64,000 nucleotides of DNA from an uncultured Muribaculaceae bacterium (GCA_964458035.1 CAYWFZ010000002.1:484-64483); one strand, 5' to 3'. Shown: positions 753 through 59,566, counted from the first letter of the stretch. Translations and numbers: made by a program. The notes: a model not told the origin generated them from the letters alone.

Positions 753-763
753 GTATACTTTCC

Positions 764-13120: not shown

Positions 13121-13138
13121 ACTTACCTCCTCAATATA

Positions 13139-13169
13139 ATTAAGTTCACACACAAAGTGTGAACTTAAT
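13139..13169 (-). terminator. Strong hairpin (terminator/attenuator) between the small secreted-protein gene and the ABC genes
   Basis: Perfect 13-bp stem ATTAAGTTCACAC (13139-13151) / GTGTGAACTTAAT (13157-13169) with loop ACAAA. It lies directly after the stop at 13171 and about 20 nt before the permease RBS. Confidence 0.6.
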
Positions 13170-13170
13170 A

Positions 13171-27192: not shown

Positions 27193-27215
27193 AGTACACA
27201 CAAGTGTACTTTTTA
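27191..27215. terminator. Bidirectional terminator between ldh and the convergent histidine kinase gene
   Basis: AAAGTACAC (27191-27199) / GTGTACTTT (27204-27212), flanked by A- and T-runs. Confidence 0.7.
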
Positions 27216-28409
27216 TTTGATATACCTGATAATAAATTCGCATCCCTTACCAATTTCACTTTTAACTTTAATTCTACCATTATCCGCCTCAATTATCTCT
27301 TTAGCAAGAGAAAGCCCTATTCCAAATCCATTATCATTATCATTTAACTTATAAAATCTTTCAAATATCTTTTTTATATTTTTCTTTTCAATACCTGCTC
27401 CAAAATCTTTTATACTTACCTCAGTGAATACATCAGTTTGATATGCACTTATTAACACCCTTTTCCCCTCTGGTGAATGTTCAATCGAATTTTTAATAAT
27501 ATTAGTTAAAGCTTCAATTTCCCATTTTTTATCTCCTTTAATGAGTGTTTCATCTGGACAATCAAGTTTAATATCAACATTCTTTAAATCAGCTAACATA
27601 GAAACATTTTTTATAGATTCACTTATAACTTCTCGCAAATTAATATTTTCATGTTTTAACTTAACTGTATTTGTATCAAATTGAGATAACTTTAAAATAT
27701 TATAAACCAAGAAATTAATATTAATTATGTCTCTTTTAATATCCATAATAAATTCGCATCTTACTTCTCTATCCATTTCTGGATTATCTATAATATTATC
27801 AAGTGCAATACTAATAGAAGTAAGTGGTGTTTTAAGTTGATGTGATATGTCAGATAAAGAATTCTTTATACTAACCTTATCGTTTAATGAATTATCTGCG
27901 CTTTCTTTTAACATTACCATTGTCTTGTATATTTCATTCTGTAAAATAGATAAAGCACCTTCACTGTTAGAAATCATATCTAACTTATAATTCTTCTTAT
28001 TAATCTCTTCAACATAATATATTAATCTTTTAATATTTTTATTATTCTTAGATATAAACACGTTTAATACAATTATTAAAATCACTAATAAAAAAAATAT
28101 AAATACTGCATCATATAAATAAAGTTTATTTAATATTCTTTTGCCATATAAACTTATTTGATCATTATAAATATCTATGCCATAAGAGTTTAAAAACGCA
28201 TCATCTATATTTTCTTTACTCAATATATCTATTATTTCTTGATCAGTTATTTCTGGATATTTTTCTCTTACATTATTAATAATGTTTGATACTACCATAT
28301 TAGTTGATTCATTAAATCTATTTATTTGCTTATTAGTAAAAACAAAGATAAAAGATACAGAAATAATAAATACAATAATAAAAGTTATATTAATTCTTTT
28401 TCTATTCAT
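27213..28409 (-). CDS. Sensor histidine kinase
   Basis: 398 aa. Two TM helices, H-box 'SDISHQLKTPLTSI', and an ATPase domain with N, G1 and G2 boxes ('NIIKNSIEHS', 'DFGAGI', 'GFGIGLSLAKE'). Confidence 0.85.
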   Translation of the reverse strand: MNRKRINITFIIVFIISVSFIFVFTNKQINRFNESTNMVVSNIINNVREKYPEITDQEIIDILSKENIDDAFLNSYGIDIYNDQISLYGKRILNKLYLYDAVFIFFLLVILIIVLNVFISKNNKNIKRLIYYVEEINKKNYKLDMISNSEGALSILQNEIYKTMVMLKESADNSLNDKVSIKNSLSDISHQLKTPLTSISIALDNIIDNPEMDREVRCEFIMDIKRDIININFLVYNILKLSQFDTNTVKLKHENINLREVISESIKNVSMLADLKNVDIKLDCPDETLIKGDKKWEIEALTNIIKNSIEHSPEGKRVLISAYQTDVFTEVSIKDFGAGIEKKNIKKIFERFYKLNDNDNGFGIGLSLAKEIIEADNGRIKVKSEIGKGCEFIIRYIK

Positions 28410-29040
28410 GATCTATTCGATACCCGATTCCTTTAAGTGTTTTTATAATATCCGTATCTAGCTTCTCTCTTATTCTTTTCATATATACAGTAATGGTATT
28501 GTCATTTACATCATTTCCCGTCCACTCCCATATATGTTCAAGTAAACTATCTCGTGTAACTACTTTATCTATATTACTAAAAAGTAAATTAAGTATCTTA
28601 AGTTCTAAACTAGATAGATTAACTTCTTTTCCATTTTTATATACAACCATTTTATTTGCATCATACATGATATCTTTAATAGTAATAACGTTTGTACTTT
28701 TATCATTTAATATTCTTTTTATTCTGGCAATTAACTCTCTTGTCGAAAAAGGTTTAGTTATATAGTCACTTGCTCCCATTTCTAAGCCACCTACTATATC
28801 ATCTTCTGAATCTTTAGCAGTCAAGAAAATTGTTTTAATATTCTTAACATAATTTTTATAAAAGTCAAAACCATTTCCATCAGGTAAAGAGACATCTAAA
28901 ATAATCAAGTCTGGATTTTTATTTAAACATTCCAAAGCAGAAGAACAAGTTGAAGCTAAAATAACATCATAGTTATTTTGATTTAAAGCATACATTAATC
29001 CTTTAGCTATTTTTTCATTATCTTCAACCAACAAAATCAT
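28402..29040 (-). CDS. OmpR-family response regulator
   Basis: 212 aa. Receiver domain 'ILLVEDN...LIILDVSLPDGNG...LTAKD' plus a winged-helix C-terminus 'TVYMKRIREKL...IKTLKGIGYRI'. Confidence 0.9.
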   Translation of the reverse strand: MILLVEDNEKIAKGLMYALNQNNYDVILASTCSSALECLNKNPDLIILDVSLPDGNGFDFYKNYVKNIKTIFLTAKDSEDDIVGGLEMGASDYITKPFSTRELIARIKRILNDKSTNVITIKDIMYDANKMVVYKNGKEVNLSSLELKILNLLFSNIDKVVTRDSLLEHIWEWTGNDVNDNTITVYMKRIREKLDTDIIKTLKGIGYRIDHE

Positions 29041-29098
29041 AGAATACCTCCCTAAGATTTATTATATCAAATAAAGAGGGATATTACTCCCCCTTAAG

Positions 29099-31786
29099 TT
29101 AAATATTATCATTTCTAATGGTTTCAATTGTATTTTGTTTACTTATCTTATTTATTGAGTATTTCATAATTACAGTTATTAAAATTAGTACTGCAACAAT
29201 AGAAATGATTACTGCCTTAAATGGATAAATATAATCAAAATCCAAGTCTCCACCAACTAATGCACGATAAATTAAATACGAAAGCAAACTACCAATTGGA
29301 ATACCAATAATTAATGATTTAAAGCCATAGAAAATACTTTCTAGACTAACCATCTTATTAAATTCATGTTTAGTCATACCTACACTTTTTAGAGTTGCAA
29401 ATTCACGAGCACGTAATTCAACACTAGTTGTGATCGTATTAAATATATTAGTTATACCAATAAGAGCAATAACAATTATAAATCCATAAAGGAATATAGC
29501 TACCAATGTGAAAAGTGACTTACTTTCCCTTCTCTGTTTTTCAAAATTAGATACATGATAGTCATTTGCATTAACTAAAACTTTTTCAACTTCATCTTGA
29601 AATTTATCAGGATTTTCTACATCAAGAATCATCTCATAATAATTATCATTAGGTTTAAATTTAGAAATAGTTTCCTCACTTACAATCATGATAGATTGAC
29701 TATAGAAAATATTTTCTTGCCCAAATGGTTTTTTATCGGTAACATATCCAATCTCGATATCTCTGTCTTCCCAGCATGCATCTGGATCCTTATCATCACA
29801 TTCATCATTGTATATATAACCTTCTAGTTTATCTCCAACTTTATAATCAAAAATATCTACTTCATGTGATGTATTGGTACCATTTTTTTCATCATAAGAG
29901 AATACTAAAGTAGTATTTATATTTATAGCTTTATCTTTAACATCTTCATATTTTAGTCCTAAACTATCTATATACTTTCGATATTGATAATCACCTAAGC
30001 TTAGTAAAGAAACTCCCCAAGTCTTACGGTCATCACTCATTATATCTTTTACATAGTCTCCTTCATATTTAAGATACTCATCAGTAAATTTTGGATTTTC
30101 TATAGAATAATTAGAAGACGTATTAATCGCATAATTTTTAATACCATCAATATTCAAAATATCTTTTGCTATAGCATCTGATTTTTTCTTATCATTAATT
30201 TTATAATTTAAACTAATATTATAACTGACATTTTTAAAACTTAAATCAACTGATTTAAATGCTAACATCATAAATGAGTAAAGAGATATAAATACTGCAA
30301 CACAGACAACTATTGATATGACAGTTGTACGATATTTTTTATTATTTCTTTTTAGATTCTTATAAGAAACATCTCCGCCTATTCCAAATAACTTCTTTAT
30401 TATTTTAGGAGACTTAATTTTCTTCGATTTGATTTTAATATCATCACTGTTACGTATCGCAGATATTGGTGAAATCTTACTTGCTTTTCTAGCACTTCTA
30501 ACTGCTGATAAATATATAGTAATAGCACCTAAAATTATAGATAAAATAATCGAACCAACAGACACTTTAAAGATTAAGTCAACACCTATAGAATCTCCAA
30601 TTATAAAAGATGAGACTTTAATTAATACATATGATGCAAAAATACCTGACAAAATACCAATTGGGATAGCAATAAGTCCCAAAACAAATGCTTCATAGAG
30701 TACATTTTTCTTAATCTGTTTTCTCGTTGCTCCAATACTTGCAAGCATTCCATATTGTTTAGTTTTTTCTGTTATTGAAATATTAAAACTATTCTTTATA
30801 CAGTAAATTGATGTAACCATAATTATTAAAGTAACTATAGCAGCAACTGTATAAAGAGCTTTCATTGATGAATCATTTAAATTTTGATATTCTAAAGATA
30901 TTAAGTAGGTATTAGTATTAACTACATCATATCGAGCTTTTTCCATCTCACTTTCAAAAGTTTTCAAAAACTTCTTATATTCATCTTCAGATTCATAAAC
31001 CATTGATGTCATACCTTTTTTATAAATGTCTTTATCAACACCTAAAATATTTGCTGTTACATAATATGGCTCATCTAAATATTTATTCTTATATCTTACA
31101 TACGCTGTATACATTGATTCGTTTGTATCATCTAAACATGTAATAAAAGTATACCCCGGAGCCGAGTAAGGTTCAACCGCATAACTAGGTCTTTCAATTA
31201 TTCCAACAATTTTATATTCTTTATCATATTCCTTCTTAAAATGTTCTAAATCCGCATGATATGGACTTGATTGATCTAGTGGATAATCTTCATCATTTTC
31301 TAAACGTTTACCAATACCTAATTTAATTGTATCACCAACATTTAAATTTACTCGTCCATTAGTTCTCAAATGTTTGGAAATAACTATTTCATTACTGGTT
31401 TGAGGAAGTCTTCCTTCTAAAATATTAAGTTTTACCATTTTATCTAAGGCCTTAAAATCATAAGCTTTAACATAGACAAAAGGTTTATCTTCATTCTTTA
31501 TTCCATCTAGTTTTGAATATCCAATTTCTTTAGAGAAATAAACATCTTCTATATATCGATTATTTTTAAATTTTTCTACATCATTTGATAAAACATGATC
31601 AAAAGCAACATGATAATCACCTGATCTTCTTTTTTCAAATTCTAGCATAGAGCTTTTAAAACTTATAACAAGGCCTGATAAAGCTGTTATAAGTGCAACT
31701 GATAGTATAATACCAACTATTGTAACAATTGTCCTTTTTTTATTTAATACTAAATTCTTCTTAGTAAGTTTGTTAAGCAAGTTCAT
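29099..31786 (-). CDS. Large FtsX-domain ABC transporter permease
   Basis: 895 aa. Two FtsX-type TM bundles separated by large external domains. Confidence 0.8.
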   Translation of the reverse strand: MNLLNKLTKKNLVLNKKRTIVTIVGIILSVALITALSGLVISFKSSMLEFEKRRSGDYHVAFDHVLSNDVEKFKNNRYIEDVYFSKEIGYSKLDGIKNEDKPFVYVKAYDFKALDKMVKLNILEGRLPQTSNEIVISKHLRTNGRVNLNVGDTIKLGIGKRLENDEDYPLDQSSPYHADLEHFKKEYDKEYKIVGIIERPSYAVEPYSAPGYTFITCLDDTNESMYTAYVRYKNKYLDEPYYVTANILGVDKDIYKKGMTSMVYESEDEYKKFLKTFESEMEKARYDVVNTNTYLISLEYQNLNDSSMKALYTVAAIVTLIIMVTSIYCIKNSFNISITEKTKQYGMLASIGATRKQIKKNVLYEAFVLGLIAIPIGILSGIFASYVLIKVSSFIIGDSIGVDLIFKVSVGSIILSIILGAITIYLSAVRSARKASKISPISAIRNSDDIKIKSKKIKSPKIIKKLFGIGGDVSYKNLKRNNKKYRTTVISIVVCVAVFISLYSFMMLAFKSVDLSFKNVSYNISLNYKINDKKKSDAIAKDILNIDGIKNYAINTSSNYSIENPKFTDEYLKYEGDYVKDIMSDDRKTWGVSLLSLGDYQYRKYIDSLGLKYEDVKDKAININTTLVFSYDEKNGTNTSHEVDIFDYKVGDKLEGYIYNDECDDKDPDACWEDRDIEIGYVTDKKPFGQENIFYSQSIMIVSEETISKFKPNDNYYEMILDVENPDKFQDEVEKVLVNANDYHVSNFEKQRRESKSLFTLVAIFLYGFIIVIALIGITNIFNTITTSVELRAREFATLKSVGMTKHEFNKMVSLESIFYGFKSLIIGIPIGSLLSYLIYRALVGGDLDFDYIYPFKAVIISIVAVLILITVIMKYSINKISKQNTIETIRNDNI

Positions 31787-31788
31787 TA

Positions 31789-32460
31789 TTAATCCTCCTT
31801 AACGATTTTACCATCTTCAATTTTTATAATTCTATCAGCAGAAGATGCAATATCCAAATTATGTGTAATCATTACAATTGTTTGATGATACTTTTTGTTA
31901 GATATCTTAAGCAAATCAACTATCTCATCACTTGCTTTAGAGTCTAAGTTTCCAGTTGGTTCATCAGCTAAGATTATTGCTGGATTAGTAATCATTGCTC
32001 TTCCAATGCTTGTTCTTTGTTGTTGACCACCTGAAAGTTCATTTGGTAAATGTTTTCTTCTGTCCATCAAACCAAGAGAATCAAGCAATTCATCTAATCT
32101 CTTTTTATCAACTTTTCTTCCATCGAGTTCCATTGGTAAAGTGATATTTTCTTCTACATTAAGAATAGGTATTAAATTATAAAATTGATAAATTAATCCA
32201 ACTTGTCTTCTTCTAAATATTGCTAGTTTATCATCATTCATATCATAGATATCATTACCATCTATATAGACTTTACCACTAGTTGGTCTATCAACTCCAC
32301 CAATTAAATGTAAAAGTGTTGATTTACCTGAACCCGATGCACCAACTATTGCAACAAATTCCCCCTTCTTAACAGAAAATGATACATTATCAAGTGCTAC
32401 AACTTCATTTTCTCCCTTTCCATATATTTTAGTTAATCCTTCAACTTTTAATAAATCCAT
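31789..32460 (-). CDS. ABC transporter ATP-binding protein (MacB/BceA-like)
   Basis: 223 aa. 'GASGSGKST', 'LSGGQQQR' and 'ILADEPTGNLD'. Confidence 0.9.
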   Translation of the reverse strand: MDLLKVEGLTKIYGKGENEVVALDNVSFSVKKGEFVAIVGASGSGKSTLLHLIGGVDRPTSGKVYIDGNDIYDMNDDKLAIFRRRQVGLIYQFYNLIPILNVEENITLPMELDGRKVDKKRLDELLDSLGLMDRRKHLPNELSGGQQQRTSIGRAMITNPAIILADEPTGNLDSKASDEIVDLLKISNKKYHQTIVMITHNLDIASSADRIIKIEDGKIVKED

Positions 32461-32526: not shown

Positions 32527-35500
32527 TTAATGATTATTATGTAAAGAAAGAGTTTTATATTCTAAATCTCTAGATAAAGTACTATTATGTTCTAGTCTTA
32601 GTTTAAGATAGCCTAAGACATTAATTAATTCATCCCACTCATCATCAGTTAACAAACTTGCATCAGTTACACCAAATATTTCTTCTATTTTTTTTACAGT
32701 TTTAGGTGGAATATCAGTTCCAACACTAGCTAAAATATTTCTAACATCTTCTCTACTTGCTGAATCAATTCTAAAATAATCCTTATACTTTTCTCTTATT
32801 AAATCATATGTAATAAACTTATTTGGTCGAACTCTTGCAAAGGGCCCTTTTCTTCTAATTTTGTCAAAATATCTACGATAATTTTTCTCACTTACAAGAC
32901 CAAATTCTTCATTATGTTTATAATAATATTCTAATACCTCTTCATAAGAAAATTCCTTAGCTTTCGTTATACCTTGTTTATACTTGAGTACAGAAACAGT
33001 AAACTCTCTTATTATTTCACTTACAGAAGAATCACTAAGTTCTGGATGATAATTCTTTACTATTTCACTCTGTGGTAACCTTTTTTCATAATAAAGGAAA
33101 CATAGTTCATAAGCTAAATCTTGATTACCATAGTATGGTATATCCGTATTTCCTGCATAACTCCAAAAATAATCAAAATCAATACCTGTTTTAATACCTT
33201 TCTGTAAGTCACTTAAGTGCATTCTTATTTTTTGCATTAATAGAGTAAATTGATGTGCTGAAAAGCCAAATTTCTTTTCGATCTTTGTTTGAGGTACCTT
33301 ATCTTTATACATCATCTTTAATATTTCACGATCTTCTAAAATAAAATATTTAAGATATGGTTTAATATCAATTTTATATATTACATCCCCTTTTATTTCA
33401 TTATTTAAATATTTCTTTATTGTAACAATACTTTTATATAATCTCTTTCTAGCAATTGGTTCTCTTATTTCATACTTTAAAGCAATATCTGAAATTTTTA
33501 AGAACTCTTCTCCATATAAACCATAAGCATCAATCACTATATTTTTATCTTCCTTACTTAATGGAAGCCTTTTATTTCTTAAAACACTTTCAAGTTCGCA
33601 TCTGTCAATAAAGTCAATCGCCGTCTTAAGTAAACCTATTTTATGGGCTGCTACATGTTCTTTAGCATGTCTAACATAAGAACCAACATTTCTGCTCACT
33701 CCAATTATTGGACCAATATCAATCGGATAATGTTTCTTACCTGTTTCATTATATGAATTCTTTATTCCATAATAAAGAGAAAGAATAAGTTTTTCCCTTT
33801 CAGTTAAGACATTTACTGAAGGGTGCTCATTTATAGCTTCTATAACATCATCTTTAGTTATTTCAACTTGTTCAATCGATAACTTATTAGCAAGATTATA
33901 AAGTCTTCTAACATAATTGCGAACTACTTCTAAATCAACTCCTGTAATCAAAGAAGTTTCATTCGTATTTCTTACTCTTATAAATACCTCCAAAACAGAT
34001 TTTACATCTTCACCATATTTGGCACTACTTAAAACACTTTTTAAAAACTCCTCAGAATAATTCTTTTGTGTACTTGTTATACCAAAGCGATAATAGTCCA
34101 TTACTGAGACTGCATATTTAACTAATTCAGCTACACGTCTAGGAGTAAAGTCTTCGTCATTCTCATACTTTAAAGAAATACTTTCATAAGTCATATCTTC
34201 AAGGAAGAACATTTTTGCAACACTTAAATGTGGTTCGCCTAAAGGTAAATTATCATCCATTAAAACTTCACGATAAATTTTCTTATCAAAGTAATATTGC
34301 CCAATTCCTAAATAAGTATTTATAGCAGTGTTTTTTGATCTTCTAAAATCTCTTTCTGTTATATCTTCATCTTCATTCAAATAAAGAGACATTTCTCTTA
34401 TCGTCATACGAGACGTAAACACTCCATAGTATAGATCAAGTAAATTAATTTCACGTTCCTCTAAAGTCTCTAAAAGTTCATCTCTAACTGATACATATTT
34501 TTCCTTTGTAAAATTATCATTTTTGTAATCCTCAACATTAAATAAAATCAAGAATAATTTATTGATAGCAGAACGATTAGGATTTACTTCTGATTCATCT
34601 ATACTTTTATCTTTTTTAAAAACATAATAATTCAAAAAATCCTTCTGTTTTTCTGTGAATAAATCTTGATTCTCTAAAAATATAGGATAGAGATGAGACA
34701 AGGATATGTCATGAACCCTATATCCATAAAGTGAATAATTCACATCTCTTTCAATATATTCTTTATTTTGAATATTTTTTCTTTGTGGGTATGCAACATC
34801 AGGTTGATAGCAATTGGGAATGCCATAAAACTTCTTTACAATACCCAATAAATAATCATTTACAGGCACATGATTTTCATCAAGTAGTTTAAGTACATCA
34901 TCAAGTGTCTTATCATTAAAGTACTCACGTATAATCTCTTTATAATCAAAAAACTCAGTAATATCAGAGTCTATTTCTAAATTATATATTTTATTTTTAT
35001 AATGTCCAAATAAATTATTTTTAAATAAATAAAAGTGTGGATCAGAATAGCTATCATGAATAAGCTTTTTTATTTTTTCAAAGCATGCCTCAACATATGA
35101 TTTATCTTCATCTATTTCTAATGCAACATAATCAGGATCGAACTCCATTTTACCAAGTAATATTTCATTTAAAATAAATTGATCTTTTTCCTTAAAATTA
35201 TCTTTTAAGAAAAAATACATTATATAGTTCTCTATTTGGCAAGGTTCTACTTTTATTTTATCGTAATTATAATTTTTTTTAACTTCATCTAGATATTCTT
35301 TTTTTAAATAACCATCATCAGTAAACATTTTCCTAACAGTACTTTTTATACTTCCTTCAACTTGACGTACTCTTTCTTTAGTAATACCTAAGTATTCACT
35401 CATTTCTTCTAGTGTTTTCGTTCTTTTATTTAATACACGATGATACAGTATTAAATATTCATAATCGGACAGTTTAATCTTTAACGTTTTTAAGATTTCT

Positions 35501-36177
35501 TCAACAACTATTTTATTAAGCAAATCATCAATAGAAGTATTTTCCCCTGTAATAAAATCTCCTAAAGTATCTTTATCTGCATCAGAGCTATCAACCGGAG
35601 CATCTAACCATGCAGCTTCAAATTTATAGTCTTCTTCTATCTTGCTTAAAGTAAGATCACTTATTTTAAGTATTCTACAAATTTCACTTCTAGATGGTAC
35701 TTCTTCTCCAGTTTTTTCATATTTATTCATAAATTTTTTATATCTTGTCATAGCCTCTTCAAGATACGCAGGTCTTCTTATAAGTCTTTGATTGTTATAA
35801 CGATAATAACTTATTTCTTTTTGTATTTGATATTCAGCATGAGTAGAAAAAGCAGTACCTCTATTAATATCGAAAGTTTCAACAGCTTTAATAAGACCAA
35901 TAATACCCGATTGTATATAATCAAGTTTCTCTTCTGCACGTAAGACATTCCCTAGCCCAAAAACTTTTGAAATTACCAAATTAATATTTTTATTAACTAT
36001 TAAATCTTTAATCTCGGCATTACCACTAAAATACTCCTGTAACATTTCATCATTTTCTTCACGAGTAGCAGTTTTATATCTTTTAATGATTCTTAAGAAA
36101 TCATTTAAACAACTATCTGATAAAAAATCATCATAATCAATATTTTGTACGTCTGAATTAAATTTATCCATAGACAT
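32527..36177 (-). CDS. Giant sigma-70 family protein: N-terminal sigma2-sigma3-sigma4 core plus a roughly 930-aa extension of repeated sigma4-like HTH modules
   Basis: 1216 aa. Region 2 is 'LVISKVFG...YIQSGIIGLIKAVETFDINRGTAFSTHAEYQIQKEI'. Region 4 is 'LSDYEYLILYHRV...TLEEMSEYLGITKERVRQVEGSIKSTVRKM'. Later segments repeat the pattern, e.g. 'LTEREKLILSLYYGI...' and 'LEEREINLLDLYYGV...TIREMSLYL'. Confidence 0.7.
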   Translation of the reverse strand: MSMDKFNSDVQNIDYDDFLSDSCLNDFLRIIKRYKTATREENDEMLQEYFSGNAEIKDLIVNKNINLVISKVFGLGNVLRAEEKLDYIQSGIIGLIKAVETFDINRGTAFSTHAEYQIQKEISYYRYNNQRLIRRPAYLEEAMTRYKKFMNKYEKTGEEVPSRSEICRILKISDLTLSKIEEDYKFEAAWLDAPVDSSDADKDTLGDFITGENTSIDDLLNKIVVEEILKTLKIKLSDYEYLILYHRVLNKRTKTLEEMSEYLGITKERVRQVEGSIKSTVRKMFTDDGYLKKEYLDEVKKNYNYDKIKVEPCQIENYIMYFFLKDNFKEKDQFILNEILLGKMEFDPDYVALEIDEDKSYVEACFEKIKKLIHDSYSDPHFYLFKNNLFGHYKNKIYNLEIDSDITEFFDYKEIIREYFNDKTLDDVLKLLDENHVPVNDYLLGIVKKFYGIPNCYQPDVAYPQRKNIQNKEYIERDVNYSLYGYRVHDISLSHLYPIFLENQDLFTEKQKDFLNYYVFKKDKSIDESEVNPNRSAINKLFLILFNVEDYKNDNFTKEKYVSVRDELLETLEEREINLLDLYYGVFTSRMTIREMSLYLNEDEDITERDFRRSKNTAINTYLGIGQYYFDKKIYREVLMDDNLPLGEPHLSVAKMFFLEDMTYESISLKYENDEDFTPRRVAELVKYAVSVMDYYRFGITSTQKNYSEEFLKSVLSSAKYGEDVKSVLEVFIRVRNTNETSLITGVDLEVVRNYVRRLYNLANKLSIEQVEITKDDVIEAINEHPSVNVLTEREKLILSLYYGIKNSYNETGKKHYPIDIGPIIGVSRNVGSYVRHAKEHVAAHKIGLLKTAIDFIDRCELESVLRNKRLPLSKEDKNIVIDAYGLYGEEFLKISDIALKYEIREPIARKRLYKSIVTIKKYLNNEIKGDVIYKIDIKPYLKYFILEDREILKMMYKDKVPQTKIEKKFGFSAHQFTLLMQKIRMHLSDLQKGIKTGIDFDYFWSYAGNTDIPYYGNQDLAYELCFLYYEKRLPQSEIVKNYHPELSDSSVSEIIREFTVSVLKYKQGITKAKEFSYEEVLEYYYKHNEEFGLVSEKNYRRYFDKIRRKGPFARVRPNKFITYDLIREKYKDYFRIDSASREDVRNILASVGTDIPPKTVKKIEEIFGVTDASLLTDDEWDELINVLGYLKLRLEHNSTLSRDLEYKTLSLHNNH

Positions 36178-36232
36178 TTCTCCAATTGTTTGTATTTTAC
36201 CAAATAAATACTCAATTGTCTTTAAAATTTAT

Positions 36233-36264
36233 GAAAAAAGAATTAACATCTATAATGTTAATTC
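36233..36264 (-). terminator. Rho-independent terminator closing the 39028-36250 operon
   Basis: Perfect 10-bp stem GAATTAACAT (36240-36249) / ATGTTAATTC (36255-36264) spanning the stop codon. On the minus strand it is followed by a U-run (plus-strand A-run 36234-36239). Confidence 0.7.
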
Positions 36265-37599
36265 CTTTTTCTTTATACATTCATGATTTATTTTACCTGT
36301 ACCTAAATAGTTTAAATCAACTCCTAAAGTTGTTTCTAACCAGTTTAGATATTCCCTAACATATCTATCAATATCGACATTCTCATATTCCCCAGTCTTA
36401 TGAGCAAAATCAAGATTTAAATGTTGAAAAAAATTTAAATATATTCCATCAGGATCATTCATACGTACATTTTGTTTTAATTTTCTAATATCTAAATCAA
36501 ATATTTTTCTTTCCATTCTTGTAACTGAAGTCATCTCTGATAAATCTGTTAAATATGGATCTTCTAAACCACTTAAATCAATTACATCAGAAATATACTT
36601 GCGTATTCCCATTCTTTTATTAATAAGTCTCTCCATTTCAAGAGCATCAACAACTGTTACATCTGACATAGACACATTAGTATAATTTTCTCCAAATATT
36701 TGTAACTTATCCCGATTAGTAGTTTGATTTAATAACTTAATCTTTATTTCATCATTTATTTCTTCATAATCAGAAAATTGGTCTACTGTTGGATAAACAC
36801 CAAATTTAGATGCAAAATTTATATGACTCCAAGTTAACTTATCGGCAGTTCCATAACCACCTGTATAAATATACTCACCATCTCTAGTAATATCATTAAT
36901 TCTAATAGGAAATGGCCTTATAACCATATCAGCATAAAGAAGTCTTCTTGGAGAAACACCTGCCTCTTGAAGCATATTAGAAACTGAAATATTTCTTGAA
37001 GTCACATTAGGATGTTCTCCACTAAAATTTAATGATAAATCACATCCTTGAGCTCCCTCGAACAAAACTGTTTCATCTTTACTATCTAAATGTTTATATA
37101 ATAAATCTAACCAATCTGCATTTTTTAAAACTACCGCATTTTTATACCCTTTAAAAAATTCAAGTTCAGGATTTCTTATTATCTTATCTTGGTTACATGC
37201 AGCACACCCATGATAAGTTGAACCACTTTTAATAATTCTCTTTTCCCGCATTTTATGCTCTTCAGTTACTAAAGGAACTAGTTCATGAACATATATCTTG
37301 CGGTTACCTAAGAAGTGTTCATGTTCATCATATTCACGCTTAAATTCTTCCATATCAATTACTGAACTAGGACCAATAAATAATTCAACGTCTCTATTTA
37401 CTGAAGCAACGGGAATGTTTCTAAAAAGGTGAGATACTCCATATTCATCGACAAATGTATGCCCTGCATTAGGCATCGAGTTTGTAAGACTTGCTCCAAC
37501 CGAATATATGGGATTAGTAGCAATCTCACCACACACCTTCGCCTTACCACAAGACCCCGCTTCTCCATCAAAAACACATATTATATTATTATTAACCAT
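36250..37599 (-). CDS. Divergent adenylosuccinate synthetase (PurA)-like enzyme
   Basis: Track ORF trimmed to the ATG at 37599, which has a GGGAGGG RBS. 'NAGHT' and 'FEGAQG' are kept in the PurA order. The other PurA motifs are altered: 'GEAGSCGKAK' (vs GDEGKGK), 'GSTYHGCAAC' (vs GTTGRGIGP), 'SVTRMERK' (vs TTGRRRR), 'HLNLD' and 'GTGK'. Confidence 0.65.
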   Translation of the reverse strand: MVNNNIICVFDGEAGSCGKAKVCGEIATNPIYSVGASLTNSMPNAGHTFVDEYGVSHLFRNIPVASVNRDVELFIGPSSVIDMEEFKREYDEHEHFLGNRKIYVHELVPLVTEEHKMREKRIIKSGSTYHGCAACNQDKIIRNPELEFFKGYKNAVVLKNADWLDLLYKHLDSKDETVLFEGAQGCDLSLNFSGEHPNVTSRNISVSNMLQEAGVSPRRLLYADMVIRPFPIRINDITRDGEYIYTGGYGTADKLTWSHINFASKFGVYPTVDQFSDYEEINDEIKIKLLNQTTNRDKLQIFGENYTNVSMSDVTVVDALEMERLINKRMGIRKYISDVIDLSGLEDPYLTDLSEMTSVTRMERKIFDLDIRKLKQNVRMNDPDGIYLNFFQHLNLDFAHKTGEYENVDIDRYVREYLNWLETTLGVDLNYLGTGKINHECIKKKELTL

Positions 37600-37614
37600 A
37601 AACCCTCCCAAGAT

Positions 37615-38283
37615 TTAAATATTATCCCAAATCCTTTTATATTGTTTAATTTGACTCTCTAAACTAATTTGTGCAGCTGGATGAAAGACTGGAACAATTA
37701 TATAGTTATCTAACTTTATAATTGGATACTTCTCAATTGATTTAGTTAGATTAGATTCTAAAGGAAACCCATATATCTTAGACAAAGCTAAAAGTGGGTA
37801 ATACCCAAGAGTAACTATAACTTTTGGTTCAACTATTTCAATTTGTCTTCTTAAAAAACTAGAACATGCACATGTCGAATATTTTAAATCTATATTATTA
37901 CCACGATAATTTGTGCCATTTCTTGCACACATTATGGCATTAGTTATAAATATCCTACTTTCATCCATTTCTTTATTAGTCATTTTTAAAAACTTAAATA
38001 GATTCTTCTTAGTTAAACTTTTCTCTTCATCAATTAAATATTCCCAACTCTCACCATTTTTATATCTTTTATATAATATTTCCATATCTTTATATGGTCC
38101 CCAATCTTGACCAATAATCATTACATCAGCATCTAAGTGATTTAACCAATCAGTCCAAATGGAAGGAACTAAAAAAGCCATATCAGTAGAATAAAAGTTA
38201 ATCAAAGATTTACTCTGTAAATGCAAACACTTATCACATTTACTTATATCTCTTACTAAAGATTTAAATTCATCACTTTTCAT
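37615..38283 (-). CDS. Uracil-DNA glycosylase superfamily protein (family-4-like, altered motif A)
   Basis: 222 aa. 'CDKC' at the N-terminus, 'IIGQDWGP' in the motif A position, 'FITNAIMCAR', 'IEIVEPKVIVTLG' and 'VFHPAAQ' (motif B). Confidence 0.6.
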   Translation of the reverse strand: MKSDEFKSLVRDISKCDKCLHLQSKSLINFYSTDMAFLVPSIWTDWLNHLDADVMIIGQDWGPYKDMEILYKRYKNGESWEYLIDEEKSLTKKNLFKFLKMTNKEMDESRIFITNAIMCARNGTNYRGNNIDLKYSTCACSSFLRRQIEIVEPKVIVTLGYYPLLALSKIYGFPLESNLTKSIEKYPIIKLDNYIIVPVFHPAAQISLESQIKQYKRIWDNI

Positions 38284-39028
38284 CTAGTACACTTTCATCT
38301 AATTCAATAAATCCGCCTCTACTCCAAAGCCATAAAGGTGTATGAATATCTATTGGCTTATAAGGTGTCCCCTTAAGTGCATTCTTCCATGCTTCAATTA
38401 CTAATTCTTGAACATCACTTCTATTCATTTCATCATCACTTATAAGACCGAGCTTATGAGTAGCCTTAATTACATGTGTATCAGGCGCAACCGTTAAACA
38501 TTCAGGATTAACATAAACAGTATCTGTATATTGCATTATTACATAAAGCCAATAATTTACAAGTTTAGTTCCACTTAAATAAGGAAATGCTTTTTTATAT
38601 TTCAAGATAAAATCTCGTATTTTATTAACGTCATTACCTTCGCTTTTAAAAAGAATACGTATATCGCCATCAAATAAATCAGTTATTGTTTGACATAATT
38701 TAATCCATATTTCAGTCTGTTTATTTTTTTGTAAGGCAACTTTATATTTCACTAAAGCACTCTGTACTTCTTCAAAACTTCTTTTTAAAACTTCTTCCGG
38801 CTTAAAAAGAAATGATGTTTCTGGATCATGCGCCGTTTTATTGGCTCCTTCCCATAAAGTATAAGAATTCCTTTGATAATTTAATGCCATAGGTAACGTG
38901 AAATATAAATAATTTTCTAAAGAGGATTTAGAATAATGAGGATTTTCATCCTCTGGCATTACTTCTCCACCCAACATACCTTTTTTATGCATTGCCATTA
39001 ATATCTCGCATTTCTTTATAATATCCAT
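38273..39028 (-). CDS. HhH-GPD superfamily DNA glycosylase-like protein
   Basis: 251 aa. 'LSGTKLVNYWL...VAPDTHVIKATHKLGLI' parallels EndoIII 'GVGRKTANVVL...VDTHVFRVSNRLG'. Paralogous pattern to the 19103-19852 protein. 11-nt overlap with the downstream UDG-like gene. Confidence 0.5.
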   Translation of the reverse strand: MDIIKKCEILMAMHKKGMLGGEVMPEDENPHYSKSSLENYLYFTLPMALNYQRNSYTLWEGANKTAHDPETSFLFKPEEVLKRSFEEVQSALVKYKVALQKNKQTEIWIKLCQTITDLFDGDIRILFKSEGNDVNKIRDFILKYKKAFPYLSGTKLVNYWLYVIMQYTDTVYVNPECLTVAPDTHVIKATHKLGLISDDEMNRSDVQELVIEAWKNALKGTPYKPIDIHTPLWLWSRGGFIELDESVLDEK

Positions 39029-39054
39029 AACATATCACCTAACAACATTATAGC

Positions 39055-39080
39055 ATAAAAATAAGTGCATATATGCACTT
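39055..39080 (-). terminator. Rho-independent terminator after the 39083-40462 gene
   Basis: Perfect palindrome AAGTGCATATATGCACTT (39063-39080). On the minus strand it is followed by a U-rich run. Confidence 0.7.
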
Positions 39081-39082
39081 AC

Positions 39083-40462
39083 TTAACGTAATTCTTTTTT
39101 TGAATTCACTGGTACCTCATAAACTTTATCAGATGTAGCAATATAATCAAGTAACTCATCAAAAGTTAAATAATCAGGAATATCAAGAAGCTCATAAAGA
39201 GTCTCACCAGGAGCCATACAAGCTGTATATCTTCCTATTAATCTTTCAAAAGAATCAAATTTATAAATACCTTCACTATTAGAAAATGGAACACCCATTA
39301 AACAAGCATTTTCAAATTCATCCAAATAAACAACAAATGTTTTAAATTGAACTTTAGAGTTACTATCTAGACTTTGATTAACAAATACTGTTGCTTGATA
39401 TCCAAGTCTTTTTAAAGTAGTTAAAATAAACTTAGCAAATTCTATATTAGTACCATAAGATTTAGAAAGCGTTTCTTCAAACGGAGATACACGATATCTT
39501 CTTTCAATATCATATGGATTTTTATGAAGTTCATTCTTTTCATCAAACCAACCATATGCAAAATTAGAATTCATATAATCTAGTATATCTTGAGGAGTTT
39601 TTACATGTTTATAAGAAGCGGCAGACATCTTTACTCCTAAATCAGAGCCACAATAATTTACAGTTCTAACTATTAAAAATTTTTCTATCATTTTTCTATA
39701 TTCTGGATTTCTTAAAAGTAAATCAAAATTATATCTATTTTTTAAAGGCATCTTCTTCTTTTCCATCTTTTCAACAGCTAAAGGTGATTCATAAACATTA
39801 AAATCATTATTTAAAACTGTATAATCATCTTCTGTTGCAGGAATCTTAGGTACTTTTGACGATAGCAAATAATTAACCATAAAATAACTAAGTAAATATC
39901 CTGAATATCTAGGAGAACCAATTGTATGTTGACCATTACCCTCATTATAAAGATAAGCTATATTTGGTATTTCTTTTCTACGCCCTACAATTCTTCTTAA
40001 AAAAGCACTTTTACTCTTTTCCTTACTATTTTGTAATGCACTTCTTTCACCCGATAAAGTCTGTGCAATTCCCTCATCTAACCACAAAGGACGTTCAAAA
40101 CTATCAGCATAAATTGATGCATATATAATATGACTATACTGATGAACTATTTTATTAACAACACTAGTTAAATTCTTGTTATTAAGCATTTGTTTAACGT
40201 ATACACCAATTCCCTTATTGGAGTAAGATCCTTCAGCATATTCTTCATACTTCTTCTTAGTCTTCTTAGCTTCATCCTTTAAATCTTCTAAATCAGCAAA
40301 TAAAGTAACTTTTACCGGTCTATAGTCTGATACATTAAAAAAACTTCGAACTAAACTTGCTTTTTCCGAAACCATTTCCAATATACTTTCTAAATATGGT
40401 CTAAATTCGTCACTACCCTGTATAGTGAAATATTCATTACTTATATTTGCCATATAATTCAC
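39083..40462 (-). CDS. Two-domain protein: gluzincin-like N-domain with HQxxH, transglutaminase-like C-domain lacking the Cys
   Basis: 459 aa. 'VHQYSHIIY...(about 20 aa)...LDEGIAQ' follows the HExxH...E pattern with E replaced by Q. The C-terminus 'YGTNIEFAKFILTTLKRLGYQATVFV' resembles 'G.C..FA.....R..GIPAR' without the Cys. Confidence 0.35.
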   Translation of the reverse strand: MNYMANISNEYFTIQGSDEFRPYLESILEMVSEKASLVRSFFNVSDYRPVKVTLFADLEDLKDEAKKTKKKYEEYAEGSYSNKGIGVYVKQMLNNKNLTSVVNKIVHQYSHIIYASIYADSFERPLWLDEGIAQTLSGERSALQNSKEKSKSAFLRRIVGRRKEIPNIAYLYNEGNGQHTIGSPRYSGYLLSYFMVNYLLSSKVPKIPATEDDYTVLNNDFNVYESPLAVEKMEKKKMPLKNRYNFDLLLRNPEYRKMIEKFLIVRTVNYCGSDLGVKMSAASYKHVKTPQDILDYMNSNFAYGWFDEKNELHKNPYDIERRYRVSPFEETLSKSYGTNIEFAKFILTTLKRLGYQATVFVNQSLDSNSKVQFKTFVVYLDEFENACLMGVPFSNSEGIYKFDSFERLIGRYTACMAPGETLYELLDIPDYLTFDELLDYIATSDKVYEVPVNSKKELR

Positions 40463-40477
40463 CTATTATAATTATAA

Positions 40478-40510
40478 CAAATAAAAGAGAATAAATCTCA
40501 CTTTATTCTC
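40478..40510 (-). terminator. Rho-independent terminator after the 40498-41598 gene
   Basis: GAGAATAAA (40487-40495) / TTTATTCTC (40502-40510) overlapping the gene end. U-run on the minus strand. Confidence 0.65.
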
Positions 40511-41598
40511 ATATTTAGCAATTTTTTTACTCTTTTTTTAAATTTTACTCTTGCAGAAGTAACCTTATAAGTTCTAAGTTCTTTCATAAATACATCATAT
40601 AGTGAATTAAACTCTTGTAATATACCTGCATATTCTTCTTCTGTAATAAGTTCTTTTTTCAAATAGTCGTATAGTCTTTTATTAACAAAATCTTTTAAAA
40701 ATTTAGATATTTTAATAAAACTTTTAGTATCAATCCCATGTCCTTCAACATATTGTTTATAAGCCTTATCAATTTTTGTTAGCAACTCCAAATAAGCACT
40801 TTTATACTCATACTTATCAAATTCATCCATTACAGCAATTGGATTTCTAATACTTTCAGAAATAAATATATTATTTGGTAAGACAGAAGATTTTTTACCT
40901 ATCCTACTTGCTTCAAGTAAACCTTTATTATGTAAATAATTCTTATCCATCCAGTTATCACTTGATAAACTAAATGCTGAAACAAACATTTGAAAGAATG
41001 TAAGTAAATCATCTGTAGGAGAAAGAAAGTATTTATCATCATTATGATCATAATATCTAAATAAATCATCTATTATAAAGTCTGGCTCATTTCTCTTTTT
41101 TACAACAGCTACAGCTAGTAATTGTGCTAAACTATCTGCCATATAATACCCTGGTGTATATTCATGTCCATCTGTATCACATTTAAAAAAACCTGAATAA
41201 TTAGAAACATCATATATATCTGCATCTAAAAAGGCATTTCTTTTAAAATAAGAGCCATATACGTTATTAAAAATAACCATTAAAGCATGCCACAATTCAT
41301 GTGAGAAAATAACTTCTATATATTTTATATCTCCATTATATTCACTAGTTCCATACATTTTGATATCTGTTAAACCATCACTTGAAAACCTTGTATGTCC
41401 ATGAACTTTCTCATTTAAATCTTCATCTTTATAATTCCAATCTCGTATTTCTAGTGACTTTATTCTATCTAACACTTTTTCATTAAATAATTCTGTAATC
41501 ATTCTATCAGAATCTCCAAATAGCATACTGATATTATCGCCTAATATTTGTTGAAAAAGCGTATAATCTTTATTAGTCGAAACATTTATAGTATCCAT
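40498..41598 (-). CDS. Putative zinc metallopeptidase-like protein (HExxH)
   Basis: 366 aa. 'VIFSHELWHALMV'. No signal peptide. Confidence 0.4.
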   Translation of the reverse strand: MDTINVSTNKDYTLFQQILGDNISMLFGDSDRMITELFNEKVLDRIKSLEIRDWNYKDEDLNEKVHGHTRFSSDGLTDIKMYGTSEYNGDIKYIEVIFSHELWHALMVIFNNVYGSYFKRNAFLDADIYDVSNYSGFFKCDTDGHEYTPGYYMADSLAQLLAVAVVKKRNEPDFIIDDLFRYYDHNDDKYFLSPTDDLLTFFQMFVSAFSLSSDNWMDKNYLHNKGLLEASRIGKKSSVLPNNIFISESIRNPIAVMDEFDKYEYKSAYLELLTKIDKAYKQYVEGHGIDTKSFIKISKFLKDFVNKRLYDYLKKELITEEEYAGILQEFNSLYDVFMKELRTYKVTSARVKFKKRVKKLLNMRIK

Positions 41599-41643
41599 AA
41601 TAATCCCCCTTAAAAAAATAATACACCTATTATAGCATATTTT

Positions 41644-42300
41644 TTATTTTTGTGCTTGAATCCATTTTATATCTTCAATAGCTTTATCAACATTGAAGAA
41701 TCCATTACCTACTGGATAATACACCGAGTAAAAATCAAATTCTTCTCCATTGATGTTTTTTACAAACTTTTTCTTTCGAACATTAGATACACTTATGCGT
41801 TCATCTAGCATTATTGAACTTACCTGATTGCCAAATAATACAATGGCCTTTGGTTTAATAATATTAAACTCATATTCTAAGTATTTTTTATATTCTAAGA
41901 ATACTGAATCTGGAAGTGGTCTTGCATCTACTTGTGTACACTTTCCTAAGTTAGTTATAAAAAATTTATGTTTTTTTACATTGTCATATACAAGGCGAGA
42001 AAAATCATAATCCCATTCAGATCCTTTTTTTTCGCGTATACTTGCATATATATCATCATCTAATAAATCTAAGTCATGAAAAAGTGTCCATATATTTTTA
42101 GTGCCTATCCAAGGATGTTTTGGACCCTTCCAGCTTTTATCAGCAGCTATATTTCTTCTCGTTGGATTCATAAAAACAAAACAAATATCAGGGTGATCTT
42201 CACATCCACCATTGTAGATTGAATCAAGTTCTTTATCACCATATTTTTTCTGTAAACGATCATATACTTTATATAAATCATCCATTATTTTATATTTCAT
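41644..42300 (-). CDS. Uracil-DNA glycosylase superfamily protein
   Basis: 218 aa. 'ICFVFMNPT' (motif A position, MUG/SMUG-like xxNPx), 'FFITNLGKC', 'IKPKAIVLFG' and 'YYPVGNG' (motif B position). Confidence 0.55.
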   Translation of the reverse strand: MKYKIMDDLYKVYDRLQKKYGDKELDSIYNGGCEDHPDICFVFMNPTRRNIAADKSWKGPKHPWIGTKNIWTLFHDLDLLDDDIYASIREKKGSEWDYDFSRLVYDNVKKHKFFITNLGKCTQVDARPLPDSVFLEYKKYLEYEFNIIKPKAIVLFGNQVSSIMLDERISVSNVRKKKFVKNINGEEFDFYSVYYPVGNGFFNVDKAIEDIKWIQAQK

Positions 42301-42324
42301 AATACCACCTACCTAAATTATATC

Positions 42325-42360
42325 ATAAAAAAAGATTACATATTTTTTAAAGTAATCTTT
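42325..42360 (-). terminator. Terminator hairpin after the 42336-42869 gene
   Basis: AAAGATTAC (42331-42339) / GTAATCTTT (42352-42360) with a 12-nt loop. U-run on the minus strand. Confidence 0.5.
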
Positions 42361-42869
42361 TCATCTCTTTCGTATTTTATTTCTCCCACTAATATCTTAT
42401 ATAGTAACTTGAATGCTCCATCAAATGACACATCATAACCTGTTACAAACTCGTCAACTTTCATTCCTTGAGTTTTAACATAAAAATCATCTAATTTAAG
42501 ATGGTCTTCAATACTCCATATTATGCGAAAATGTGTATAACAACTTATAAGTTCAATTATATAATGAAGTATTTGCGATAATCCATCCATTCTATTCTCA
42601 ACTTGATTCTTATCTAAAGCAGCCATTATATCAAAAAGACTTGATTCATCGCTTAACCCCAACGCTTTTCTATATATAAAAACTTTATCAAGTAAATAAA
42701 CTCTTAAAGCCTCTAATTCCATTTTTAATCTGTCTTCATTACTTGTTAGTTCTTCATAACCATTTTCCCTTAAAAAATTGGCTATTTTATATCGAATATC
42801 TTCTGTTTCAATATTAATCTCTGTTATTACCTCGTCCATAAAGCACCTCACAAAATCATATTCTAACAT
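42336..42869 (-). CDS. Hypothetical protein
   Basis: 177-aa ORF, predicted helical. No motif recognised. Confidence 0.5.
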   Translation of the reverse strand: MLEYDFVRCFMDEVITEINIETEDIRYKIANFLRENGYEELTSNEDRLKMELEALRVYLLDKVFIYRKALGLSDESSLFDIMAALDKNQVENRMDGLSQILHYIIELISCYTHFRIIWSIEDHLKLDDFYVKTQGMKVDEFVTGYDVSFDGAFKLLYKILVGEIKYERDEKITLKNM

Positions 42870-42885
42870 AAGATTAAATAATCCA

Positions 42886-42913
42886 CAATAAAAAGGATAC
42901 CAAGTATCCTTTT
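42886..42913 (-). terminator. Terminator hairpin after the 867-aa gene
   Basis: AAAAGGATAC (42891-42900) / GTATCCTTTT (42904-42913). Confidence 0.6.
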
Positions 42914-45515: not shown

Positions 45516-45571
45516 ATAATCACCTAGATTACCTTATTATAAGATTATTATATCATTAATTAATTAATATT

Positions 45572-45604
45572 AAAAGAAAAAAAGAGTTTAATTATAAACT
45601 CTTT
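45572..45604 (-). terminator. Terminator hairpin after the 74-aa gene
   Basis: AAAGAGTTTA (45581-45590) / TAAACTCTTT (45595-45604). U-run on the minus strand. Confidence 0.6.
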
Positions 45605-45812
45605 TATTTAAATCAAGTCCTAACAATTGTAATTTAATTGTAATCTGCTTAATCTCATTATCTTTTAAGCCAAATTCTTTTAATTTTTTTCTATTTAAAA
45701 CCCAAAGATTCTCGATTGTAACTATTTCATTTTTCTTAAGTATTTCAACAATCTGTTTATCTAAATCTAATATTCCAATATCTTTTTCTATATAAATATT
45801 TTTCTTATGCAT
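45588..45812 (-). CDS. Stand-alone RNA polymerase alpha-subunit C-terminal-domain (alpha-CTD, HhH)-like protein
   Basis: 74 aa. 'ILDLDKQIVEILKKNEIVTIENLWVLNRKKLKEFGLKDNEIKQITIKLQLLGLDL' aligns with the B. subtilis RpoA CTD pattern '[22 protein letters not shown]...L..V.NLGRKSLEEVK.KL.ELGL'. Confidence 0.55.
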   Translation of the reverse strand: MHKKNIYIEKDIGILDLDKQIVEILKKNEIVTIENLWVLNRKKLKEFGLKDNEIKQITIKLQLLGLDLNKRVYN

Positions 45813-45874
45813 AGTTACACCGTCCCCAAAATTAATTTCAATAATATTATATCACACTTTTCATAATCAAGGTA

Positions 45875-45903
45875 AGAAAAAAAGTAAGAAAAATTTTCTT
45901 ACT
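45875..45903 (-). terminator. Terminator hairpin after the 478-aa gene
   Basis: AGTAAGA (45883-45889) / TCTTACT (45897-45903) within the palindrome AGTAAGAAAAATTTTCTTACT. Confidence 0.6.
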
Positions 45904-47335: not shown

Positions 47336-47456
47336 TTTCGTCCTCTCCCTCATCTAAATCAAGGTCGACTTCATCATGACTTTCTAATGAAGCAATAAGT
47401 TCATCCATTTCTTCTAATACTTCAAATGTTTCTGTCATTTCACTGTTATCTTCCAT
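47328..47456 (-). CDS. Candidate 42-aa highly acidic micro-protein
   Basis: My own translation: MEDNSEMTETFEVLEEMDELIASLESHDEVDLDLDEGEDENG. An AGGTGA RBS lies 5 nt upstream. The stop overlaps the start of the 478-aa gene (ATGGCTAG). Not in the supplied ORF track (below its size cutoff). Confidence 0.35.
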   Translation of the reverse strand: MEDNSEMTETFEVLEEMDELIASLESHDEVDLDLDEGEDENG

Positions 47457-59538: not shown

Positions 59539-59566
59539 CAAAAGAAAAAGACTTAACTTAAGTCTT
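59539..59566 (-). terminator. Terminator after the 626-aa gene
   Basis: AAGACTTA (59548-59555) / TAAGTCTT (59559-59566). On the minus strand it is followed by a U-run. Confidence 0.55.

Follow-up and report, generated by a model that had tools for sequence, protein, structure and literature searches.

The 64,000-nucleotide stretch of DNA analysed here (the window; GCA_964458035.1, CAYWFZ010000002.1:484-64483, from an uncultured Muribaculaceae bacterium) carries on its minus strand an uninterrupted open reading frame (ORF) at 32527..36177, stop codon included, which encodes 1216 amino acids counted from the first ATG. As judged from profile comparisons and structure models, the product is a sigma-70 family protein in which a sigma core of about 290 residues precedes a fixed series of four-helix helix-turn-helix (HTH) domains with the fold of sigma region 4, eight of them clear and at most eleven in all. 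We hold this architecture, taken apart from any mechanism, to be nearly certain. An earlier note, based on a reading of the DNA alone, had delimited the same ORF and had proposed a sigma core followed by an iterated region-4-like array; the conservation of the family, purifying selection, profile and PDB matches, and structure prediction with Foldseek searches bear this out and speak against a fusion of separate genes. Such an architecture is described in none of the libraries, source annotations and papers searched, which agrees with the statement of the earlier note that no sigma with an iterated region 4 was known to its author. To our knowledge, sigma factors have been described with a single region 4 only, and full-text literature searches found none in which region 4 is repeated.

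Sigma core and tail modules

The complete sigma core announced by the earlier note was recovered over aa 24-292. Pfam Sigma70_r2 matches aa 61-115 with 27.9 bits (cut-off 24), confirming that the N-terminal part fits region 2 profiles, and Sigma70_r4 matches aa 236-274 with 34.5 bits (cut-off 24.1). The NCBIfam RpoD/SigA, RpoS and SigB/F/G models align contiguously across the whole core, with 60-103 bits against curated cut-offs of 234-779: TIGR02997 (RpoD/SigA family) reaches 103 bits for a cut-off of 384.5, RpoD_Cterm 101 bits for 354, NF006666 (RpoD equivalog) 89 bits for 572, and the RpoS model 92 bits, also in a contiguous alignment. Pfam Sigma70_r3 was not detected in the window protein; it lies above or near threshold in distant members of the family, in which Pfam r1_2, r2, r3 and r4 are all detectable. 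In the window protein, region 3 is covered by the RpoD_Cterm, RpoS and SigBFG models, which align contiguously over aa 57-283. With regions 2, 3 and 4 each matched, the protein is placed by its sequence in the sigma-70 family. It is not an extracytoplasmic function (ECF, group 4) sigma, given the presence of region 3 and the detection of region 1.2 in relatives. Judged by its scores, neither is it an RpoD/SigA equivalog, since it falls below the cut-offs and is not single-copy.

The canonical family consensus reads IQEGNIGLI.AIE.YD..G.AFSTYA..WI....IR.P in region 2 and L.P.EYYILYYR......KTLEEIA..FGITRERIRQ.E in region 4. Region 4 of the window protein contains the recognition helix TKERVRQVE, in which KERVRQ keeps the positions that we take to be equivalent to the -35-reading residues E585, R586, R588 and Q589 of sigma70 (E. 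coli numbering). In the subclade to which the window protein belongs, the aromatic residues of region 2.3 are altered (FSTHAEYQIQK vs FSTYA..WI in the family) and the -35-reading KERVRQ is kept. The best partial matches are to models of the RpoD/SigA family, region 1.2 is found in distant members and the -35-reading residues are presumably sigmaA-like, three points that would suit the primary (housekeeping) sigma of a reduced-genome lineage with a lineage-specific tail. We consider this highly improbable, however: the scores lie 3-6 times below the curated RpoD cut-offs, the -10-reading residues differ from those of sigmaA, three divergent paralogues occur in one metagenome-assembled genome (MAG) and two sigma-like ORFs in one locus, and the gene is adjacent to dnaG in none of the loci examined. 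No canonical sigA was found within the 64-kb window.

Beyond the core, hhalign linked eight tail modules (M1-M8; Table 1) both among themselves and with region 4 of the same protein (P 1e-10 to 1e-3), using profiles built on a 100-sequence full-length family alignment with a median identity of 25%. The inter-module matches are in register (P 1e-8 to 1e-4), and the best score of a reversed-profile control was 14 (P 0.2) vs 23-64 for real pairs. M2 aligns to region 4 with P 1e-6 when used as query and 4e-5 when region 4 is the query (aa 563-622), to M5 with P 1e-8 and to M6 with 6e-8. Using region 4 as query, M4 is found with P 5e-4 (aa 706-770) and M7 with P 2e-4 (aa 959-994), and M8 aligns to region 4 with P 8e-3 (aa 1022-1055). 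Two loose subtypes can be distinguished, M2, M5 and M6 sharing an L..E..IL.LYYG signature and M3, M4 and M7 a ..SY.EIA..-type HTH. These comparisons support all six tail segments that the earlier note had listed as region-4 repeats. Its three weaker candidates fared unequally: the segment 325-373 turned out to be the strongest copy (P 3e-9) and 722-765 is robust, whereas 505-545 stayed weak (P 9e-5 to M4, for the unit 491-547). The unit 424-482 aligns to T2, a segment of the C-terminal tail, with P 2e-4, and T2 to M6 with P 2e-6. The units at ~424-482, 491-547 and 1144-1187 may be three further, degenerate copies.

Against PDB sequences, the M6 profile (22 diverse members) retrieved region 4 of SigA, RpoS and RpoD (best E 5.5e-4), with alignments that begin exactly at 'LS.RE..VL', the start of region 4.1. 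KorA and region 4 of WhiG, SigF, RpoE and FliA were retrieved by the M3 profile (E 6e-5 to 2e-2), generic HTH proteins, homeodomains and SigF by the M7 profile, and weak homeodomain and SigF matches only (E of at least 0.05) by the profile of the whole tail. A plain BLASTP comparison of the window protein with itself gave marginal pairs only (<=24 bits), and Pfam searches over ten segments of its tail gave nothing beyond one sub-threshold Sigma70_r4 match at M5 (18.9 bits); these routine tools are almost blind to the repeats, and the pattern-reading behind the earlier note therefore outran them. A shallow 14-sequence alignment led hhalign to the right places with P values of 1e-3 to 0.09, and it took the 100-sequence alignment to reach the values given above. 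In the tails of distant relatives, Sigma70_r4_2 (up to 40 bits) and HTH_28 exceed the Pfam gathering thresholds. An array of tandem whole sigmas, with extra copies of region 2 in the tail, as one could read from the first Foldseek list, was also considered and rejected: the region 2 profile finds no second copy, and the repeat unit is therefore region 4 and not a whole sigma.

AlphaFold2 modelled residues 286-1216 (12 sequences) as an all-helical chain with a mean predicted local distance difference test (pLDDT) score of 77, in which a unit recurs every ~75 residues, made of a short helix followed by helices of ~10, ~7 and ~19 residues. The C-terminal ~20 aa are disordered and unconserved (pLDDT < 50 across the last 18 residues). 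With the whole 931-aa tail as query, Foldseek ranked sigma factors first in the PDB and the viral library, with no E < 0.007 and template modelling (TM) scores of ~0.07-0.2. M6 and M7 are the sole modules that were modelled separately; the fold of the others is read from the helix pattern of the AlphaFold2 model and from the profile links. The M6-M7 fragment (aa 858-996) reached a pLDDT of 88, and every one of its 50 best PDB matches is a sigma region 4, from SigA, sigmaS or ECF sigmas. It superposes on isolated region-4 chains over 57-69 columns, with a root-mean-square deviation mostly of 2-3 A and target-normalised TM scores of 0.62-0.80, as for 1rio_H (TM 0.80, 2.0 A), 4g6d_A (TM 0.77) and 1ku7_A (TM 0.71). 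Together, the profile links and the M6-M7 model point to a sigma-4/HTH fold beyond residue ~290.

Conservation and distribution of the family

A query with the tail only (residues 290-1216) retrieved 14 clusters at 90% identity, all of 1169-1234 aa except one fragment. The survey of homologue length and distribution that the earlier note had suggested was made by an exhaustive profile search with residues 286-1216, which gave 236 representatives at 50% identity; E was below 1e-30 for 147 of these, and the match to the tail profile begins nearly always at residue 275-320 of the protein found. The 106 members that reach at least 1100 aa have a median length of 1198 aa (interquartile range 1178-1214), and each contains a single significant sigma-2 match, which begins between residues 12 and 76. 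These full-length members of ~1200 aa show no trace of the fusion of separate genes that the earlier note had named as a possible pitfall. Six longer relatives have an extra C-terminal ~250 aa, in which no additional Pfam domain was found. Each module position is individually conserved and aligns across the family. In a relative with 88% identity, assembled independently from an unrelated sequencing run (L013), the gene has identical length, 0 indels and the same flanking genes, and the ratio of non-synonymous to synonymous substitutions (dN/dS, Nei-Gojobori) measured against it is 0.13 in the core, 0.15 in the tail and 0.087 in M5-M8. In conservation and in selective constraint, the array equals the sigma core.

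There is a negligible probability that we are dealing with an assembly or annotation artefact, in which genes were fused or a chance helical similarity was taken for repeats. The near-noise BLASTP self-comparison and the single sub-threshold Pfam match beyond residue 290 in the window protein alone would agree with it, but the length and domain order recur in over 100 independent full-length homologues, the comparison with L013 gives the values above, the reversed-profile control is flat and the structure search returns sigma region 4 uniformly. Both a gene fusion artefact and a decaying sequence are excluded by the shared family architecture, the lack of indels in L013 and the dN/dS values.

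The members examined all come from metagenome assemblies or MAGs labelled Erysipelotrichales, Bacilli, Firmicutes or 'Tenericutes', and among them the family is confined to uncultured low-GC gut Bacilli. None of these members has a functional name, the source names seen being 'hypothetical protein' only. No model of Pfam, NCBIfam, PADLOC or PHROG covers the tail, and PADLOC and PHROGs match the sigma core only. An origin from mobile elements was rejected, as searches of phage and plasmid collections gave no match to the tail. One 'Tenericutes' MAG (CANDHX01) holds three divergent paralogues (L007, L010 and L012, with 27-31% mutual identity), a count that comes from three contigs of one MAG, whose binning can be wrong. 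Each of the three lies at a contig end; the family may break assemblies, and its copy number in MAGs is perhaps underestimated. In another locus (L009), a 229-aa ORF at 12880-13569, ~4 kb downstream of the giant sigma gene, resembles only the sigma region 2 part of the family and may be a conventional sigma paralogue.

The core-binding motif of regions 2.1/2.2 (IQEGNIGLI.AIE.YD...G..FSTYA) and region 4 are conserved family-wide, regions 2.1/2.2 and 4 are under the same purifying selection as the remaining protein, and regions 1.2, 2, 3 and 4 can all be detected in distant members. One would not expect a protein that leaves the polymerase unbound to conserve its polymerase-binding surfaces to this degree. 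It is thus quite improbable that we are looking at a sigma-derived DNA-binding, chromosome-organising or repressor protein that is no longer an initiation factor, an idea that would find support in the altered region 2.3 melting residues of the window subclade, in a size and repeat content unlike those of any characterised sigma known or found, and in a promoter that is of the housekeeping type and not autoregulated.

Possible roles of the array

We propose that the protein is probably an alternative sigma, in which either basic central modules add DNA contacts or the tail is a regulatory scaffold. The N-terminal ~290 aa would bind core RNA polymerase and read the promoter, with -35 determinants similar to those of sigmaA and -10 determinants that differ; we infer a non-primary sigma because the core-binding and -35 motifs are kept and because the equivalog scores and the paralogy argue against a housekeeping role. 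Because all module positions can be aligned between family members, we place the origin of the array in serial duplications of region 4 that would have preceded the diversification of the family. Within a holoenzyme, region 4 rests on the -35 element with its C-terminus directed away from the polymerase. Emerging from the C-terminal end of region 4, the array would be placed to reach DNA upstream of the promoter. Modules M4-M6 would most likely make additional DNA contacts, because their recognition helices are as basic as that of the true region 4 (family mean charge +3.0 for M4, +3.7 for M5 and +4.2 for M6 vs +3.2 for region 4 and +0.5 for M1) and because M6 has retained an arginine where sigma70 has R588 in the alignment. 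The factor would in this way read a much longer DNA than an ordinary sigma, and M1-M3, the proximal modules, which are neutral or acidic, would act as a spacer or docking surface. Taken as a whole, mechanism included, the reading as a non-primary sigma with a region-4 array whose central modules add DNA contacts is our preferred one, and we hold it tentatively, at somewhat short of an even chance. A more specific version, in which the sigma carries its own DNA-reading array and thus both recruits the polymerase and reads tens of bp beyond the -35 element or repeated -35-like boxes, seems to us rather unlikely.

Several observations weigh against the preferred reading. The Foldseek E-values for M6-M7 are all weak (at least 0.02) because the domain is short, ~65 residues, and the support from Foldseek comes from the uniform match list and the TM scores, not from E-values. 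In the window subclade, the altered aromatic residues of region 2.3 could make promoter melting atypical. The protein is acidic (pI 5.5 for the whole, 5.7 for the tail), and the family mean net charge of whole modules is 0.0 for M1, -1.4 for M3 and 0.2 for M4; with modules that are neutral or negative, not all of them can therefore bind DNA. The strongest conservation lies in the inter-module linkers (YRFGI, PYLKYF, GIDFDYFW, PYYGN), and it suits a protein-protein or architectural role no less than DNA reading. Finally, the neighbouring genes differ among the 13 loci compared, in which no partner gene is conserved and no conserved neighbour hints at a regulon.

A genuine region 4 also binds proteins, namely the beta-flap tip, anti-sigma factors and activators. 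The array could accordingly be a cis-acting regulatory or docking scaffold built of protein-binding region-4-fold domains, and not a DNA reader; the tail would keep sigma regions 2 and 4 covered in the absence of a signal, in the manner of the C-terminal extensions of ECF41/42-type sigmas, or would recruit partner regulators to the polymerase. This possibility appears somewhat unlikely. Against it, the recognition helices of M4-M6 are as basic as those of a DNA-binding region 4, the arginine of M6 is aligned to R588 of sigma70, no partner gene is conserved nearby, and known cis-inhibitory extensions are single, small, non-HTH domains and not ~10 HTH copies. In its favour, the most invariant residues form aromatic motifs that lie in linkers or at the edges of modules, the tail as a whole is acidic with M1-M3 neutral or negative, and each module position is individually conserved, as expected of specific protein interfaces; by analogy, the C-terminal regulatory domains fused to ECF sigma groups (e.g. 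ECF41/42-type) offer a precedent.

Parts of the architecture can be compared with known systems. Sigmas of groups 2/3 (RpoS, SigB/F/G, FliA/WhiG) share with the N-terminal 290 aa of the window protein the usual order of regions 1.2-like, 2, 3 and 4 and the conserved core-binding and -35-reading motifs. They end a few residues past region 4 (240-370 aa), whereas the window protein adds 930 aa with 8-11 predicted region-4-fold domains and scores far below every curated equivalog cut-off. ECF sigmas with C-terminal extensions (ECF41, ECF42, ECF56/SnoaL_2, OrbS) are alike in concept, with a polypeptide fused after region 4, and this extension is believed to modulate sigma activity in cis. Papers on sigmas with fused C-terminal regulatory domains include PMC7730460 and PMC9023288. 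ECF sigmas have no region 3, however, and their extension is a single non-HTH sensor domain of ~100-200 aa, whereas the window protein has region 3 and continues in a long array apparently derived from region 4 itself. MzaA of the MZA anti-phage system and the large phage sigmas of phrog_351 are likewise large sigma-70-family proteins with extra sequence, and their sigma part is matched by the core of the window protein (PADLOC MzaA 59.8 bits, phrog_351 134 bits), but in their profiles the extra sequence is mostly N-terminal of the sigma part and nothing matches residues 305-1216 of the window protein. Tandem HTH arrays that read extended DNA (Myb R1R2R3, Pipsqueak Psq repeats, paired/POU and the two-HTH 2lvs) resemble the tail in their three- or four-helix units joined by short linkers, and the module profiles weakly match homeodomains and 2lvs. 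Those known arrays have 2-4 units and are not carried by an RNA polymerase initiation factor, in contrast to the 8-11 sigma-4-type units on a sigma factor in the window protein, whose DNA binding is a prediction.

Gene signals, neighbourhood and significance

The translation start is probably the second ATG, at 36171, which gives a product of 1214 aa, because the spacing to GGAGAA and the gene callers and orthologues starting at MDK... favour it. The earlier note had credited the gene with its own ribosome-binding site, which is indeed present (Table 1), and had called it monocistronic. The upstream terminator and the predicted promoter agree with this; no terminator was detected in the 66-nt spacer between the stop codon and the downstream ABC-transporter gene, and the monocistronic status therefore holds only for the 5' end, 3' read-through into the ABC gene being possible. 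Upstream of the orthologues L001, L003 and L006, the arrangement GACA/GACT-17 nt-TGATA(A/G)AAT is followed by CAATTGGGG, and orthologues in other assemblies have, in this order, a terminator, a GACA-type -35, an extended -10 and CAATTGG(A/G)G. Since this layout recurs in orthologues, the sigma gene is predicted to have its own housekeeping-type promoter. The G+C content is 23-31% across the window (2-kb bins), and the gene shows no compositional break.

Table 1. Coordinates of the features of the sigma gene and its product, the flanking signals and the downstream module in the window
Feature	Nucleotides	Residues (aa)	Strand	Details
Predicted promoter, housekeeping-type	36194..36222		-	-35 AAGACA, 17-nt spacer, extended -10 TGgTAAAAT; scan and sequence
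Terminator of the upstream adenylosuccinate-synthetase-like gene	36233..36271		-	18-pair hairpin and T-run
Ribosome-binding site GGAGAA	36178..36183		-	2 nt before the first ATG, 8 nt before the ATG at 36171
Sigma core, RpoD/RpoS type (regions 1.2-like, 2, 3, 4)	35302..36108	24-292	-	NCBIfam, Pfam
Genuine region 4	35308..35514	222-290	-	LSDYEYLILYHRV...TLEEMSEYLGITKERVRQVEGSIKSTVRKM; Pfam
Module M1, closest copy of region 4	35047..35238	314-377	-	hhalign P 3e-9 / 2e-10; four-helix unit in AlphaFold2
Region X, helical	34501..35043	379-559	-	probably two degenerate modules, ~424-482 and 491-547; AlphaFold2 helices
Module M2	34306..34500	560-624	-	LEEREINLLDLYYGV...
Module M3, ends in invariant D-YRFGI motif	34087..34260	640-697	-	hhalign to region 4 P 7e-6 (646-693), M7 1e-8
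Module M4	33868..34062	706-770	-	hhalign to M3 P 2e-8, M7 4e-8, region 4 6e-5
Module M5	33634..33834	782-848	-	LTEREKLILSLYYGIKN...; hhalign to M6 P 1e-8, region 4 1e-4 (812-843)
Module M6, conservation equal to sigma region 2	33394..33582	866-928	-	hhalign to region 4 P 5e-5 (873-927)
Module M7, preceded by invariant PYLKYF motif	33196..33360	940-994	-	hhalign to M3 P 2e-8, region 4 2e-5
Module M8, preceded by invariant GIDFDYFW...PYYGN motif	32974..33138	1014-1068	-	hhalign to M3 P 6e-6, M6 6e-6
C-terminal tail, helical	32530..32973	1069-1216	-	1144-1187 probable last degenerate module
ABC ATPase	31789-32460		-	BceAB/BceRS-like module
FtsX/MacB-type permease	29099-31786	895 aa	-	BceAB/BceRS-like module
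OmpR-type response regulator	28402-29040		-	BceAB/BceRS-like module
Histidine kinase	27213-28409		-	BceAB/BceRS-like module

A co-directional cluster lies directly upstream of the sigma gene (36250-47353, minus strand), and the same block is found in L013 (1-5912). It encodes a divergent adenylosuccinate-synthetase-like protein (36250-37611; PF00709, 69.8 bits, partial), a UDG-superfamily protein (37615-38283) and several proteins of 250-870 aa whose ORFs have no Pfam, NCBIfam or PADLOC match; the L013 counterpart of 41644-42300 has a weak UDG match. The pair of PurA-like and UDG-like genes hints at chemistry on nucleotides or in DNA modification, or else at a defence cluster not yet recognised. 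This cluster is kept in the 88% identical relative and does not lie beside the sigma homologues elsewhere. Downstream of the sigma gene, a BceAB/BceRS-like module spans 27213-32460 on the minus strand. Large ORFs (506-867 aa) at 2276-4168, 42912-45515, 50091-51932, 59558-61438 and 61990-63510 have no NCBIfam match at E <= 1e-5, and the one at 42912-45515 has no Pfam match either; current family libraries cover this lineage poorly. Among ORFs of at least 100 aa, the large majority lie on the minus strand, and 29 of 32 two-kb bins have a negative GC skew, as would fit a single replichore read against the strand given here. The 64 kb contain no tRNA genes.

Through its contacts with the -35 element, the beta flap, anti-sigma factors and activators, region 4 is central to the regulation of transcription initiation. 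Its multiplication, about tenfold and under strong selection, implies a use, either DNA reading or protein docking, beyond current models of initiation. Because routine domain searches register only the first 290 residues, a sizeable family of polymerase-associated proteins in uncultured gut Bacilli, with 236 clusters at the 50% identity level, has been left unannotated, and the module boundaries make its function directly testable by truncation. If the sigma does carry a DNA-reading array, it would combine the roles of sigma, activator and architectural protein in lineages that may have few regulators, and would represent a mode of bacterial promoter recognition undescribed in the literature and libraries searched.

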